From positions 1-19,572 of the forward strand of contig JALGVI010000072.1 in NCBI GenBank assembly GCA_029838215.1: 19,572 nt of DNA. The letters are read 5' to 3'. The position numbers were made by a program, and so were the translations under genes. This stretch comes from Candidatus Helarchaeota archaeon (GTDB lineage: Archaea > Asgardarchaeota > Lokiarchaeia > Helarchaeales > RDOG01). Below, one piece after another: positions 7,025 through 15,708 of the stretch (its first letter is position 1; every line of letters begins with the position of its first letter). Below the pieces are notes generated by a model. That model saw nothing but the letters and a program-made list of their open reading frames with translations, was not told where the DNA came from and did not search any database.

Positions 7025-7174
7025 GTCTTTGGCTTATTTTCAACTTTTTTCATTTTTTATCTCGGCTAGAAGCATTGATGCTAATCGTAAATTTTACTCT
7101 GAATGAAATTCTTCACGATCTCCCATTCATTCAAATATTTAAAGTCAGGATAAAAATCATGAGATGTTTTTATC

Positions 7175-7393
7175 ATGCGTCTTGAAGTCCGCATCATTCC
7201 AAATGCCCGGGAAACTCGTCTTGAGGTCATTGCTGATGATTGCATTAAGGTCTGGCTGAAGAATCCACCGGTAAAAGGAAAAGCTAACAAGGAATTAATC
7301 AAGTTTTTACGTTCCCATTTTAAGGCAAGTAAAGTGGAAATCATTTCGGGCCATTCGGGTAGGAAAAAAATAGTGATTATTGAAACGGACTAA
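7175..7393 (+). CDS. DUF167 / UPF0235 (YggU-like) protein
   Basis: V-R-I-I-P-N-A, PPVKGKANKELIKFL and V-E-I-I-S-G-x-S-G-R-K-K motifs. Confidence 0.92.
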   Translation: MRLEVRIIPNARETRLEVIADDCIKVWLKNPPVKGKANKELIKFLRSHFKASKVEIISGHSGRKKIVIIETD

Positions 7394-7420: not shown

Positions 7421-8284
7421 TTAAAAAATTTGAGACAGGTCAAATTCTTCTCCTAACTTGCCCTCATGAGAAACCGCAGTAACTCTAGTCAATCCTGGCA
7501 CGTGTTGGATTCCTTCGATTCCTTTTTTGATGGCATCGAATAATTTCACGACATCAAGGGAATCAATTATGATTTGGTATGCAATTTCATTCTCGTTAAT
7601 TGTAGACGATTCGATCCCGGGACAGAACGCCTGATTTATCGTTCCTTTATCTTTCATGAAGTCGTACTGAACCGAACCGATTTTTACACCAAATTTTGAA
7701 AGTCCTCCTGGATATGGACAAATGACTCCCGGTGTTTCTTGAATTATTTCTGCAAACATCATTCCTGCTTTTAGCATCGTTGTAGGGTCTCCACTCAACA
7801 CGATACTCGTGCTAACACCCCGTTTCAAGCCAAATTCGGAATCTAGGATGAATCCGTTTGGATCATCAAAGGATGGTAAAAGCCAGACTTGTCGGTCCTG
7901 AAATCGAGCCTTTTTTTGAAGTCCATCTCCGAACAGTGCAATGGAATCTCCAATTTTTACGTTTTCCACTTCAGGATCGGGTTCCATTGCATTCAGGCAG
8001 CATGCCGTTGGCGTTGGCAAGATACTTTGTGTCATTCGTCGTGCCATTTCCTTTTCCAATACGGCTTTTGTTGGTGCTGCGATCATCAGAATCACGCCCG
8101 GACGCCCGTCAGGACCATCCAACACCCGCAAGTCTATGCCGCCTTCTACGCCCTTTTTGTACCCAAATCCACTTGCGGCACGAGCTGCCGTAAGTGCCCA
8201 CTCAGGTGATACTGCCGTGATGAGAATCCGCCCTAACCATAGCGGAAATAACTCGCCCTTGCCTCTAATTTCTATGTTTTCCAA
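7421..8284 (-). CDS. Divergent formylmethanofuran:H4MPT formyltransferase paralog, probably catalytically altered
   Basis: Aligns along its full length to the adjacent Ftr (RILITA, PDGRPG, FGDG, PGG, FCP) but has YQIIID in place of LEIVLD and lacks the EAF, GGGNF, SGSK and GNYGG motifs. TTG start behind GAGGGT. Confidence 0.85.
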   Translation of the reverse strand: MENIEIRGKGELFPLWLGRILITAVSPEWALTAARAASGFGYKKGVEGGIDLRVLDGPDGRPGVILMIAAPTKAVLEKEMARRMTQSILPTPTACCLNAMEPDPEVENVKIGDSIALFGDGLQKKARFQDRQVWLLPSFDDPNGFILDSEFGLKRGVSTSIVLSGDPTTMLKAGMMFAEIIQETPGVICPYPGGLSKFGVKIGSVQYDFMKDKGTINQAFCPGIESSTINENEIAYQIIIDSLDVVKLFDAIKKGIEGIQHVPGLTRVTAVSHEGKLGEEFDLSQIF

Positions 8285-8310
8285 GTTGGACCCTCAAATA
8301 AAAAAATAGG

Positions 8311-9255
8311 TTATAAACCTAGGATTTCTTTTAAATAGATGTTATGCTTGCCGAGAGTGCCTCCGTAATTTCCTGCAGATATCTTTTTGATACCAGGGAC
8401 GGCTACTGCAGCCTTGATTCCATCTGCCATTGCCTGTTTGACCGCATCCAAAGTTATTCCATCAAGGACAATTTCGAGCACGCAATTCACGTCTGCTGGA
8501 ACTTTGGTTCCTTCGACTTGATCTTTTAGCGTCGGACATTCAAAATGGTTCGTTGAAGCATTCAAGAACTTGTATTTCATGCTTCCCGTCTTAGATCCTG
8601 ACCGGCAGACACCGCCGGGAAAGCTGGTGATCACGCCTTCAACTTTTCCTATTGCTTCGATGGCGTCCATTGATGCTTTTAATGTGTTATCCAAATTGTC
8701 TCCAAAAATGAAGAAGTTACCTCCACCAATGGCTTTTTTTGCCTTGAAACCATCTTCGAATATTGCTTCACCTTCCATCACGGGAATCTTCCAGATTGTT
8801 CGGTCCCCGAGTTGGTCCTTTTTCTGAAATCCATCTCCAAAATAAGATAATTGAAATCCCGTTCGGAATACGGCTGGAACTTTCTCTTCGGTTCCATCTT
8901 TCTTTTTCTTTTTATATAGGTCTGGTTCCGCCTTGAGCCAGTCAAAAACCGACACGGTTGGACAGGTCAAAAGACATTGCCCCATGCGATTTAAAAGCGT
9001 ATTTCCCAACTGTTTCCTGGGTGCAAAAAGCATTGCCGTAGCTCCCGGTCGTCCATCGGGAGTTTCAGTCTTTGGAATGACCAGATCTACTCCTGCTTCA
9101 CAATCGCATGCAATCGTGGAAACTGCAAATCCCGTGAAGGTTGAAATTGCGTTCTTTACCCACGTTTCATCGTGAGCGGTGATCAACACGCGTGCGCACC
9201 ACATGTTAAATGCTTCCGCATACGTGTCGTCTATCTTAACACCATTTAATTCCAA
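8311..9255 (-). CDS. ftr: Formylmethanofuran:tetrahydromethanopterin formyltransferase (canonical)
   Basis: DTYAEAF, TPDGRPG, FGDGFQ, IGGGNF, RSGSK, STNH, LEIVLDG and SAGNYGG motifs all present; TTG start behind GGTGG. Confidence 0.95.
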   Translation of the reverse strand: MELNGVKIDDTYAEAFNMWCARVLITAHDETWVKNAISTFTGFAVSTIACDCEAGVDLVIPKTETPDGRPGATAMLFAPRKQLGNTLLNRMGQCLLTCPTVSVFDWLKAEPDLYKKKKKDGTEEKVPAVFRTGFQLSYFGDGFQKKDQLGDRTIWKIPVMEGEAIFEDGFKAKKAIGGGNFFIFGDNLDNTLKASMDAIEAIGKVEGVITSFPGGVCRSGSKTGSMKYKFLNASTNHFECPTLKDQVEGTKVPADVNCVLEIVLDGITLDAVKQAMADGIKAAVAVPGIKKISAGNYGGTLGKHNIYLKEILGL

Positions 9256-11502: not shown

Positions 11503-12690
11503 TTAGTGAAAACGTTCTCGCTCGACTCGCATGTAACATTCTGCAACCGATTCTTCAGGGATTTCATTTCGGACTTTCACGAGGTCGATTTTATTTGCGG
11601 GACAATTCGAAGCACAAACTCCACAACCAATGCATCGGTCTTCGTCGACTCTCCATTCTTCTTCATATTCTTCATGCGGCATGTAATGCCAGATTGCCTT
11701 GGTCGGACAAATCTCGACACAGCGATAACAATTTCTACACTCATTTTCGTTGAATTTAGCCATGTAATTGCTTCTCATGAAAGCTTTCGGATTTTGCATC
11801 TCAACCATGCCACGCAAGATTCCACAATGACAAGGACAGCAATTGCAAATGAAACCCATTTCTTGAGAATTATACGTGCAGTGAACAAGTCCTTTTTTCT
11901 CGCAGTCCAATAGGACTTCTAGAGCTTCTTCTTTTGTGAGTTCTTTGACTATCATTCCTGCTCTTTTAAAATGTTCGATATCTCCTAAGAGCATGCATAC
12001 ATCCACAGGATTATCGCACGGACCCCGCCCTGGTTTATCATTGTATCGGCTTTCCGTCCTGCAAGCACAGGGAATGACTGCAATTCCGTCTGCCCTTTCT
12101 ATTGCTGTCTTTACTTGTTCGAAAGGCAACACGACGGTTTCGTCGACCCCTAATTCTTCGTTAACCTCTACAATCTTGTTTGCCCGATCTGCTGGTAAAA
12201 TTCTCGCCCACGGGTAATTGCTGGCACACATTTCCATGAGAAACCCCTCATAGGCATATTTTTCCATGAGCTTAACAACTTTCTTTACTGTTTCATCAGA
12301 ATATGTTCCATCATTCATTCCGACTTTTGAAAAGAACCATTCAAAAACTCCAATGACCATTGGCCAAATTGAGTATTTCACCAGTTCCTTTCCTGTTGCA
12401 GTCGTTTTCCTTCTGGAATATATCATTCCTCTCTTGGCGAGATTTTCAACGATTTCGAGTATTTTTTCTTCAGAATATTTATCGGTTTTTGCTTGAATCC
12501 TTTGTACCAGCTTTCTGGGAGAAAGGGCATCAAGATGTGGTTGTTTAAAAAAGCCTAAAATTTCTGCTTCTTCTGGAGTGAAAATTAGTTGCAGGATTTT
12601 GAGCAGGTTTTTGGATTTTGGAGTGCGAATCGACCAGCGATTCATTATTTTTTGTAACCGCTCATAAACTTCAAGTTCTTTACCTGACAT
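11503..12690 (-). CDS. Uncharacterised 4Fe-4S protein with an N-terminal wHTH-like region and extra Cys clusters
   Basis: IFTPEEAEIL...LAKRGMI, CACR...C...CM, ICNCCPCHC, CRNCYRCVEICP and CIGCGVCASNCP motifs. Confidence 0.85.
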   Translation of the reverse strand: MSGKELEVYERLQKIMNRWSIRTPKSKNLLKILQLIFTPEEAEILGFFKQPHLDALSPRKLVQRIQAKTDKYSEEKILEIVENLAKRGMIYSRRKTTATGKELVKYSIWPMVIGVFEWFFSKVGMNDGTYSDETVKKVVKLMEKYAYEGFLMEMCASNYPWARILPADRANKIVEVNEELGVDETVVLPFEQVKTAIERADGIAVIPCACRTESRYNDKPGRGPCDNPVDVCMLLGDIEHFKRAGMIVKELTKEEALEVLLDCEKKGLVHCTYNSQEMGFICNCCPCHCGILRGMVEMQNPKAFMRSNYMAKFNENECRNCYRCVEICPTKAIWHYMPHEEYEEEWRVDEDRCIGCGVCASNCPANKIDLVKVRNEIPEESVAECYMRVERERFH

Positions 12691-12721
12691 TTTTATACAT
12701 CTCTATTTTTAATTTTTGAAT

Positions 12722-13150
12722 TTACATGTTAAATAATTTCATTATTTTCGGATAATTCTTTGATACCCAATTCTGGAGCTTCTTAAGGCTGGTGGCATTT
12801 CGCAGATTGGCAAAGAGAATTAATGAGCGCGACATGATTTTCGTATAGAGCAAGTTCTCCTCAACCGTCACCGTGAACTCCAAAATTTCTCTATTTGCCA
12901 CATCGAGATAGATCTTTGAAGATGAAGACACTAAATCCGGTAAGTCCGCTGCTAGCGAACGCTCGTTGATACCCTCATCCGTAGATGAAATAATCGGCAA
13001 GCCCTTATATGAAGCACTTGTTCCCACTATCAAAATGGCACTTGCATTTATCGAATTCCTTAATTTATCAAATTCCATCTCAAGTTCTTTTGCATTTTCC
13101 AAAGAACTATCTTTACTCAGAATTTTTTTTATAAAATCACTGATTCCCAT
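12722..13150 (-). CDS. Roadblock/LC7- or longin-like small protein
   Basis: Helix, then AILIV...GLPIISS...LAA, then alternating strands and a C-terminal helix, matching the Roadblock/profilin-like pattern. Confidence 0.55.
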   Translation of the reverse strand: MGISDFIKKILSKDSSLENAKELEMEFDKLRNSINASAILIVGTSASYKGLPIISSTDEGINERSLAADLPDLVSSSSKIYLDVANREILEFTVTVEENLLYTKIMSRSLILFANLRNATSLKKLQNWVSKNYPKIMKLFNM

Positions 13151-13213
13151 GGATAATCAACAAGATTCGTTTTGTTACAAATTAAATGGTAAACCAGTTT
13201 TTAAATCCGATTA

Positions 13214-14308
13214 TCAACCGATAAGAAGAAATATGGTATAAAGACCTGCAACGGAAAATATGGCTATCAACAAGATGTCTATTGTAAGAACGGAGAAGAA
13301 ATATAGTCCCTTACGGGATTTCAACAGTTTCCTGCCCTTCTCATAGATTTTTCCGAAGAAATCATGCTTATTACGAAGCTCCATGAAATAATAGAAATAA
13401 ATCAAGAATAATGGAAGCAAATATGTTCCGTGCTCAATGCGAAAAGTAAGAAATGAAAAATTAAATCGATTTGCACTTGCTGCAAACTGGGTGAGTCGAT
13501 TTAGGAAAAGAACGATCAAAGAATTACTGAGATATGCCGGATTGAGCAAAATCATTACAATATCAATTATGAACATGCAATTCAAAAGCAAGACCATCCC
13601 ACAAAATACCGTAAAATAGAGCCACTTTTTTTTAGCACGAAGAATAAAAACAGGAAGCGCAATGATCATGTGCAATTTAAACATGGATAATGCCAAAAAA
13701 ATGGCACTCGGGAGGTCTTTTTCCTCTAAACTGAACTTATACGCCAACATCAGCAAGAGAAGTACAACAAAATTGAGATTTAAAAGAAATAGCTCCACGT
13801 AAATTGAAATTAATCCGAGGTAAAAAATGGGAAATGTTTTATCAAAATTCTTCTCCATTAACTTGTTTGCATAGAACAAGCAAGCAACAGTCATGCAAAA
13901 ATATGCCACTACTCCAATAAAAGGGAAAAATGGGTTTGGAACGATTTGATACAACCAAAATGGCAAATAGAAGGGCAAGATGTAAAGGATCATGTATGGA
14001 AGGTAAGGCCAACCATAAAGGACTGCTGATGCTCCTGCCGGAGTAAAATAATAGAGAAGATGAAACCCACCCGTGACGAATAGGTTTGCTGAACTTATAT
14101 ATATGATGAAATCGGTCCAGATGGGAAAAATTGAAATGCTGAATTGGTTCGTTGCGAATAAATATGAATTTCTAACCAGACCAATTATCAATATTACGAG
14201 AGCAATGCTTGAATATACCAACATTCTATACTTAAAATTAAACTTCTCGACTGGAATCGCGTGCAGTCGCGCAGTAAGACTCTCTTCTTCCATCTTTTTG
14301 TGTCCCAC
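13214..14308 (-). CDS. Multi-pass membrane protein, GT87/DUF2029-like glycosyltransferase
   Basis: About 9-10 TM helices; Y-L-P...F-Y-L-P, N-L-N-F-V-V-L-L-L and S-A-I-F-L-A-L-S-M-F-K pattern resembling GT87. Confidence 0.55.
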   Translation of the reverse strand: MGHKKMEEESLTARLHAIPVEKFNFKYRMLVYSSIALVILIIGLVRNSYLFATNQFSISIFPIWTDFIIYISSANLFVTGGFHLLYYFTPAGASAVLYGWPYLPYMILYILPFYLPFWLYQIVPNPFFPFIGVVAYFCMTVACLFYANKLMEKNFDKTFPIFYLGLISIYVELFLLNLNFVVLLLLMLAYKFSLEEKDLPSAIFLALSMFKLHMIIALPVFILRAKKKWLYFTVFCGMVLLLNCMFIIDIVMILLNPAYLSNSLIVLFLNRLTQFAASANRFNFSFLTFRIEHGTYLLPLFLIYFYYFMELRNKHDFFGKIYEKGRKLLKSRKGLYFFSVLTIDILLIAIFSVAGLYTIFLLIG

Positions 14309-14332
14309 TAAACTAATTCTAATCCTTGTTAA

Positions 14333-14734
14333 TTAGCCACGTACTGATTTCTTCGGTTCTGGTTGCTTCTTTTTTCTTTTATATCGATGGGTCTTGTAAT
14401 TGTATTTTCCTCGAATTCTTTCAATCTCGCCATACGTATCCGTCAATTTTTGCAGGTATTTTTTCAGGTATTTATTTTTCAATGGATGGGGATTGTTGAG
14501 CCGTTCCAACACTTCATCTGATGATGGCTTTGAATTCAAGAGCTCTAATCGACTTAACGGAATTTGCACGGAAGATAATACCCACCCTTTTTCTTTTGTT
14601 TGAGCTCTTATCTGACCAACTCCTGCCTTCTCATCGATAGTCAATTTAGTCTGCCCTAGTTTCTGGGCTTTCTCATCTCGCACCTTAATTGAAACTATTT
14701 TCTCTTTCTTCTTCTTTCCATCGTTGGAGCCCAT
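14333..14734 (-). CDS. Hypothetical lysine-rich protein
   Basis: 133-aa ORF that exactly fills the gap in the minus-strand run; SD-like GAAGGG; no recognised motif. Confidence 0.7.
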   Translation of the reverse strand: MGSNDGKKKKEKIVSIKVRDEKAQKLGQTKLTIDEKAGVGQIRAQTKEKGWVLSSVQIPLSRLELLNSKPSSDEVLERLNNPHPLKNKYLKKYLQKLTDTYGEIERIRGKYNYKTHRYKRKKKQPEPKKSVRG

Positions 14735-14769: not shown

Positions 14770-15708
14770 CTAAACGAGATCTCGCAAGTATATTTTATGT
14801 TTTCCCAGCGTGCCTTCATAATTTCCTGTTGAAATTCCCCTAACACCAGGAACCGACGTTCCAATCTCAATGGATTTTTTCATGGCTTGCTTCATGCACT
14901 CTAAATTCATGGCGTCAAAAACAATCTCAGGAATGGAATTTATGCCCAACGGAATCTTCGAATCTGAAATCTGATTCCGTAATGATGGACAGTATTGATG
15001 GTTCGTGCTTGGTCCTATTATCTTCACATTCGGTTGACCTTCATATGGTGGTTTCGATCCTGCTGAGCAAATGTCAAATGGCGTGATGACTCCTTCCATT
15101 TTTAAAATTTCTTCAATGACTCTTTCTCCAACGGTAATCGCTGAATCAACGTCCTTGCAAAAATACCAAATATTTCCTCCGCTAATAGCACGTGCATATC
15201 CGAGTGTCTTCTCAATGTAGAAATCTTCTCCCATCATGATTGGCACTTGAATTAGATCACGCCCATTCAAAGAAATCAATTTCGAATATTTGTCACCACA
15301 ATATCCTACTCCGTCCATCATGTCAAATGTTCCGAGAGGATTCTCTACTGCATCGTAGATTTTCGTTGTTGGCACCACGAGAATACCCTGGCGCAGTCGC
15401 AAGCACAATTCCTTATAAAATCTTTTCAGGTCTCGCTCCAAATCTCCTGAATCCATGCCCCAAACTTGAGCAAGGAATCCCGGATTACCATCTGGCGTTT
15501 CCTTAGAAGATAGATATTTCTCGACACCGCCCTCCGTTCGCCCAACCACGACTGAAGGCAGACCAAGCCCAAGAGCGGCTCTTGCCAGAAGTCGATCCGT
15601 CCTTGCGGTAACCATGAATCTCGTGAAAAGACCATCGAACGCCTCACAATAAGTATCTTCTATTTCCACGTCATTAACGATCTTCAAAGGTTTCTCAAAT
15701 AACATCAT
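14770..15708 (-). CDS. Ftr-like formyltransferase paralog (second, 'Ftr-II' clade)
   Basis: EDTYCEAF, ETPDGNPG, CGD, ISGGN, DICSAGSK, GPSTNHQYCP, PEIVFD and GNYEG motifs; the catalytic Glu equivalent is retained; SD GAGGAG at 15712-15717. Confidence 0.9.
   Translation of the reverse strand: MMLFEKPLKIVNDVEIEDTYCEAFDGLFTRFMVTARTDRLLARAALGLGLPSVVVGRTEGGVEKYLSSKETPDGNPGFLAQVWGMDSGDLERDLKRFYKELCLRLRQGILVVPTTKIYDAVENPLGTFDMMDGVGYCGDKYSKLISLNGRDLIQVPIMMGEDFYIEKTLGYARAISGGNIWYFCKDVDSAITVGERVIEEILKMEGVITPFDICSAGSKPPYEGQPNVKIIGPSTNHQYCPSLRNQISDSKIPLGINSIPEIVFDAMNLECMKQAMKKSIEIGTSVPGVRGISTGNYEGTLGKHKIYLRDLV

Follow-up and report, generated by a model that had tools for sequence, protein, structure and literature searches.

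A Helarchaeales-restricted Ftr paralog with glutamine at the catalytic glutamate position, encoded directly behind canonical ftr

The window, the whole 19,572-nucleotide stretch of Candidatus Helarchaeota DNA that was analyzed, carries three Ftr-family genes on its minus strand (P0001, here termed ftrQ, P0002 and P0004). The features considered are:

7421–8284, minus strand: ftrQ (P0001), 287 aa, TTG start, frame intact; paralog of Ftr fold in which Gln takes the place of the catalytic Glu
7574–7576, minus strand: CAA codon of Gln237 of ftrQ, equivalent of Glu245 in Methanopyrus kandleri Ftr
8285–8310, minus strand: ftr-ftrQ spacer, 26 nt, with a T7 run (8300–8306) and a GAGGG Shine-Dalgarno sequence (8291–8295)
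8311–9255, minus strand: canonical ftr (P0002), encoding 314 aa and leading the ftr-ftrQ pair; Glu261, GGGNF, SGSK, ASTNH and GNYGG present
~7175–7393, plus strand: convergent PF1765-like gene (tblastn), which ends the ftr-ftrQ unit
14770–15708, minus strand: third Ftr paralog (P0004), Glu261 kept

The ftr stop codon (8311–8313) lies 26 nt from ftrQ, and GAGGG is placed 6 nt before the TTG start. An earlier note on this DNA had described an intact 287-aa frame with its own Shine-Dalgarno sequence 26 nt behind ftr, and the open frame, the GAGGG motif and the spacer bear it out. An 87-aa ORF at 7081–7344 on the minus strand was rejected as a real gene: it is the shadow of the plus-strand PF1765-like gene, which was detected by tblastn with the PF1765-like neighbors of four ortholog loci (E 5e-22 to 3e-12). 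Hence, ftr and ftrQ form a two-gene unit, and they are probably co-transcribed. A bacterial-type promoter and terminator scan, a tool unsuited to archaea, revealed no minus-strand site between or just after ftr and ftrQ, with overall counts at about the shuffle mean. Farther upstream, P0004 is followed by four genes (11503–14734, minus strand) for proteins of 133, 364, 142 and 395 aa, the last with a C-terminal 2x[4Fe-4S] domain; apart from this domain, Pfam gave no match to them, with E values up to 1 allowed.

The genome of the window encodes FwdA, two FwdB, FwdC and Mch, all over curated cut-offs, so that the methanofuran/H4MPT route is encoded. These genes are scattered over contigs C12, C109, C27, C122 and C58, and no fwdB, fwdC or fwdD was found beside fwdA (1.5 kb read on each side). 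The MCR/ACR alpha subunit was not found in this 94% complete genome, and a link to alkane oxidation was dropped on that account.

The ftrQ product matched both Pfam domains over cut-off (FTR, PF01913, 91 bits; FTR_C, PF02741, 81 bits). Its NCBIfam score (177 bits) was under the equivalog and subfamily cut-offs of 292.6 and 297 (NF002554/TIGR03119), and P0002 scored 398 bits with NF002554 (cut-off 297). The AlphaFold2 (AF2) model of FtrQ (pLDDT 94.2) superposed on 1ftr_A with a TM score of 0.92, an rmsd of 2.0 Å and 33% identity, and on FhcD (6S6Y_D) with a TM score of 0.88. By its model and by both Pfam domains, FtrQ keeps the two-lobe Ftr fold.

A search of 5.8 billion proteins returned 14 relatives at 51–73% identity, labeled Helarchaeales, Helarchaeota, Lokiarchaeota or Hodarchaeota, followed by a drop to ordinary Ftrs at 36% identity or less. 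Codon 237 of ftrQ is CAA, within the motif A-Y-Q-I-I-I-D, and by phmmer against the PDB (E 1.8e-42) Gln237 aligned exactly with Glu245 of 1ftr within a conserved Y-[EQ]-I-[IV] stretch, the flanking Tyr and Ile being identical. Gln was present in 13 of 13 full-length orthologs and in one fragment that covers the site, with the reading [YF]-Q-I-[IV]. Glu was present in all 44 canonical Ftrs compared and in 0 of 13 members of the Q clade, so that Gln at this position is more than a chance replacement. The site codon was CAA in 7 of 7 loci read, with flanking codons varying synonymously, and GAA in 4 of 4 genes of a sister clade (see below). P0002 and P0004 both have Glu at residue 261.

The replacement is not confined to one residue. 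Among the 63 columns that are at least 80% conserved in the 44 canonical Ftrs, the Q clade has kept 43 and changed 20. PDGRPG, Arg83, Pro-Thr92-93, the Lys of SGSK, Tyr207 and Cys-Pro221-222 are kept, and the catalytic Glu, the GG of GGGN, the Ser of SGSK, ASTN and GNYGG are changed. In ftrQ itself, GELF replaces AEAF, FGVK replaces SGSK, and GGGNF and GNYGG are lost. FtrQ therefore departs from the family both in the conserved motifs GGGN, SGSK, ASTN and GNYGG and in the conserved oxyanion-stabilizing Glu (Glu245 in M. kandleri Ftr, Glu252 in FhcD). The loss of this key catalytic residue is fixed in the clade, although Gln mimics a protonated Glu. The earlier note had read Q237 (CAA at 7574–7576) in AYQIIID, E261 in both other paralogs, EAF to ELF, SGSK to FGVK, and the absence of GGGNF and GNYGG, and each of these readings was seen again. 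The alignment to M. kandleri Ftr that it proposed as a check placed Q237, by phmmer, at the Glu245 position.

The note had also proposed a search for E-to-Q orthologs syntenic with ftr and an estimate of their dN/dS. Such orthologs exist: an ftr-type gene was found upstream in 7 of 7 distinct ortholog loci read. In six of these seven loci the spacer is 26–37 nt long and contains an oligo-T run, followed mostly by GGAG or GAGG (tight loci besides the window number six, five of them distinct, because L054 and L055 are copies of one sequence). The exception is L053 (4218–6000; MAG GCA_054384095), in which ~800 nt, including a 68-aa ORF, separate ftr and the Q gene. The upstream ftr of L053 is interrupted by one in-frame stop, located in what looks like a 9-codon insertion; a misassembly, a small insertion and genuine decay of this ftr are all conceivable causes. 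The frame was intact in 13 of 13 full-length orthologs, and 72 columns are invariant within the clade. The dN/dS ratio was at most ~0.06–0.13 in the closest ortholog pairs, which is an upper bound and the only usable estimate, as dS was saturated or undefined in every pair. The dN of ftrQ was 1.3–2.9 times that of the partner ftr, and it was far below dS. These data point to purifying selection despite the residue loss and indicate, from the ortholog comparisons, that ftrQ is functional and selectively maintained rather than decaying, as the earlier note had held.

The distribution of ftrQ is narrow. Of the species genomes surveyed (161 of the class, 301 sampled from the phylum), only that of the window and one other of the same family carried ftrQ, and five other genomes of the order had no ftrQ ortholog. 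A pattern scan of 185,579 species genomes detected a single other carrier, Helarchaeota LW55_61, and no further orthologs came from JGI metagenome contigs scanned for Q-clade patterns. When 1.84 billion 50%-cluster representatives were searched exhaustively with HMMER, the Q clade appeared as a single 50% cluster (337 bits), with the next match at 143 bits. Thus, ftrQ is restricted to one family of the Helarchaeales (Asgard). The expectation of orthologs in "other Asgard genomes" was right as to their existence and synteny, but the range is much narrower than this wording implied. No description of a Gln clade of Ftr was found in the literature searched.

A tree was inferred with IQ-TREE (LG+C20, SH-aLRT support). 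The Q clade was monophyletic (support 99), and its inner topology mirrored the one in the upstream ftr clade, which would follow from joint inheritance of the ftr-ftrQ pair. P0004 belongs to an order-wide clade (support 100), and genes of its type were found in 7 of 7 genomes of the order. The sister of the Q clade (support 97) comes from another family of the order and includes the published Helarchaeota Hel_GB_A. Derived motifs link this sister paralog (Hel_GB_A SUPS01000133; P0068) to the Q clade: both have E-x-F-P-[FL]-[YW] and PYP-x-G, and both have lost the first Gly residues of GGGN. Unlike ftrQ, it has kept the Glu (Y-E-I-E-I, GAA codon) in a protein of 304 aa, and it is encoded outside the ftr operon, behind a gene for a 380-aa polytopic membrane protein and divergent from ftr (two P0068 contigs read). 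The classic Helarchaeota thus have a Glu-keeping sister clade with remodeled coenzyme motifs, which is new. Because this sister clade has the same remodeled motifs and keeps the Glu, the tree and motifs indicate that divergence of the paralog preceded E-to-Q, and that GAA to CAA, one transversion, took place later, on the stem branch of the family to which the window belongs. Both clades are long-stemmed, and long-branch attraction is possible, but it is made less likely by the motifs and the order that they have in common. The sister paralog lies 11 nt behind the membrane-protein gene (L063:5847–7915, plus strand; L064). The membrane protein had no Pfam match; its C-terminal G-D-A-x-A-x-x-V-G resembles, by eye, CTP-transferase/dolichol-kinase-like proteins.

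As a textbook enzyme, Ftr works without a prosthetic group, and a single key residue has been proposed for it. For Glu245, the 2006 work of Acharya et al. in J Mol Biol is said to agree with a protonated Glu that acts on the oxyanion. Being uncharged and an isostere of protonated Glu, Gln could donate the oxyanion hydrogen bond but could not relay a proton. The E-to-Q replacement alone is therefore no proof that catalysis is lost, because Gln mimics the protonated Glu as oxyanion hydrogen-bond donor, and FtrQ is at most a putative pseudoenzyme. The earlier claim of a retained non-catalytic partner stands in its first half, by synteny and by dN far below dS; its second half does not follow from an isostere of protonated Glu.

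The active site of Ftr and FhcD is formed at the homodimer interface, where the conserved Glu is presumably protonated and stabilizes the oxyanion; in Fhc, methylofuran is anchored at its anionic tail by positively charged residues (PMC6926001). A complex model of P0002 with P0001 reached a score of 0.86, when the best of three controls reached 0.00. Of 80 solved complexes, 58 attained this score; of 110 mismatched pairs, 2 did. Contact agreement between runs of the P0002/P0001 model was at least 92%, the pLDDT of the partner was at least 86, and Q237 and E261 were both within the modeled interface. The model may nonetheless pass by mere likeness to, or memory of, Ftr and FhcD homodimers, because these have been solved. 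Fixed differences accounted for 12% of the predicted interface columns vs. 7% elsewhere, and Arg35, Lys43, Arg82 and Phe198 are newly conserved in the Q clade at the predicted interface. The consensus was the same as that of the partner ftr in 37% of the interface columns vs. 39% in the rest of the protein.

P0002 has a lysine-rich insertion at residues ~104–130 (window 8900–8960, minus strand; e.g., L-Y-K-K-K-K-K-D-G-T-E-E-K-V-P). It is typical of canonical Ftr in the Helarchaeales, is absent from other Ftrs, and is longest in the family with ftrQ. It was rejected as a heteromer-specific element, as shorter forms occur in families without ftrQ and it maps outside the predicted interface.

Several known systems resemble the ftr-ftrQ pair in part. 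When compared to the solved Ftrs (EC 2.3.1.101; M. kandleri 1FTR/2FHJ, M. barkeri 1M5S and A. fulgidus 1M5H), FtrQ shares the two-lobe fold, both Pfam domains and many structural motifs, but differs in Gln for Glu245, in altered GGGN, SGSK, ASTN and GNYGG, in the sub-cut-off NCBIfam score and in gene arrangement, ftrQ being a second gene that follows a canonical ftr. FhcD of FhcABCD (6S6Y_D) is an Ftr-fold protein of a multi-subunit assembly with its active site at the dimer interface (PMC6926001). Unlike FtrQ, FhcD is active as a homodimer and has retained the Glu (Glu252), and no fhcA, fhcB or fhcC gene is found beside ftrQ. FhcB, which had been put forward as a precedent for an inactive homolog, is indeed inactive, but it is homologous to FwdB rather than to Ftr. 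The Ftr-like subunit of Eha hydrogenase is taken as a complex subunit and not as a formyltransferase (PMC3087415), and the "Ftr2" paralogs of ANME, Archaeoglobales and Methanopyrus are divergent, uncharacterized second Ftr copies (PMC9012536). The Eha subunit is a closer precedent than FhcB, and it and the Ftr2 paralogs, both divergent second copies of Ftr, are the closest precedents. In contrast to them, ftrQ lies outside an eha operon and forms a separate Helarchaeales-specific clade.

The Glu is not universal in the wider Ftr family: Gln, Arg or Ala takes its place in a bacterial clade, and Thr in one further sequence. Independent losses of this Glu, to Arg, Gln or Ala, are seen in these bacterial homologs (Rhodomicrobium WP_088343710.1, P0036 and P0128), which belong to another clade and lie in an fhcBADC-like operon or beside pterin-synthesis genes. 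In the fhcB-A-D-C-like operon of Rhodomicrobium (L065:5351–9787, plus strand), the FhcD homolog WP_088343710.1 carries Arg in place of the catalytic Glu, and the operon looks like one for a second, Glu-less Fhc-like complex. P0128 (Ala; L066:138–2897, plus strand) is encoded directly behind genes for PTPS and for a DUF6513/pterin-binding DUF4346 protein, which suggests a role linked to pterin synthesis.

Our tentative preference is that FtrQ is a partner subunit in mixed dimers with Ftr and contributes a coenzyme-binding surface. In place of the Glu that stabilizes the tetrahedral oxyanion, Gln is fixed in the clade, along with replacements at 19 further family-conserved positions, and several of these lie in the dimer-interface cleft where the coenzymes bind. 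FtrQ would no longer act as a stand-alone Ftr and would pair with Ftr as a mixed dimer or tetramer. In the heterodimer, one composite site would contain Glu and the other Gln, and the surface of the Q subunit, including Arg35, Lys43 and Arg82, might hold or present anionic methanofuran or tune the enzyme. We infer the formation of heteromers, and a reduced or altered turnover. The partner reading is supported by Gln in every ortholog that spans the Glu245 position, by the monophyly of the Q clade and its topology mirroring that of ftr, by the ftr-type gene upstream in each distinct locus, by the low dN/dS and the 43 kept columns, by the differences and newly conserved residues at the predicted interface, by the complex model, by the encoded Fwd and Mch proteins, by the position of the Ftr active site at the homodimer interface (PMC6926001) and by the Eha precedent (PMC3087415). 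Against it, the complex model may pass by likeness to solved homodimers; the interface columns resemble the partner no more than other columns do; the Glu-keeping sister lies outside the ftr operon, behind a membrane-protein gene; the oligo-T run after ftr could be an archaeal terminator; and FtrQ with its Gln may still be active. We regard as unlikely the more specific possibilities that FtrQ is a coenzyme-holding subunit, with methanofuran kept at the mixed-dimer interface by the new Arg and Lys residues, or a fully active Gln-type formyltransferase.

It is conceivable, if somewhat doubtful, that FtrQ is instead a neofunctionalized stand-alone transferase, which would form its own homodimers and transfer formyl or another acyl group between a different donor-acceptor pair, with Gln sufficing. 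The 20 family-conserved positions that were replaced and then fixed in the clade, with parts of GGGN, SGSK, ASTN and GNYGG among them, would fit such a change. The sister clade, with the same motifs but a kept Glu and a different operon, implies a functional shift before E-to-Q, and other Glu-less Ftr homologs occur in other contexts (Rhodomicrobium P0067 in the fhcBADC-like operon; P0128 with PTPS and a pterin-binding domain protein). However, ftr was the only tightly recurring neighbor in the ortholog loci read, with no linked gene for another substrate, and the data point to no alternative substrate that could be named. The partner reading keeps our preference.

FtrQ might also remain a formylmethanofuran:H4MPT formyltransferase, as an isoenzyme in which Gln237 would be the oxyanion hydrogen-bond donor, perhaps with an altered pH dependence or direction bias. 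This is improbable: the neutrality and isostery of Gln would allow it, as would the 43 of 63 conserved columns that were kept (PDGRPG, the SGSK Lys, Tyr207 and Cys-Pro221-222 included), but Glu is invariant in the 44 canonical Ftrs, many further coenzyme-motif residues are lost, the NCBIfam equivalog score is far under cut-off, and Gln would presumably be unable to shuttle a proton from N5 to the leaving amine. That ftrQ is a decaying duplicate without function is hardly credible, and we count it as refuted by ortholog conservation and selection. The lost key residue and a dN 1.3–2.9 times that of ftr would be in line with decay, but 13 of 13 full-length orthologs, 50–73% identical, are intact, with 72 invariant columns, dN is far below dS and the fold is modeled with high confidence.

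The clade does not extend beyond one uncultured family of the Helarchaeales, which limits the reach of the finding. Within this family and its sister, the genes offer, for a homodimer with an active site at the interface, a datable series that leads from (i) duplication to (ii) motif remodeling with the Glu kept and (iii) Glu-to-Gln and fixation in the ftr operon. A natural Glu-to-Gln form beside an unchanged copy provides a comparison that tests whether the Glu acts as a hydrogen-bond donor only or also as a proton relay. If FtrQ does hold the coenzyme, a diffusible carrier would have become quasi-prosthetic, as an archaeal counterpart of the methylofuran anchoring of bacterial Fhc. If Gln-type FtrQ is fully active, the "catalytic" Glu of Ftr would be a neutral hydrogen-bond donor only.
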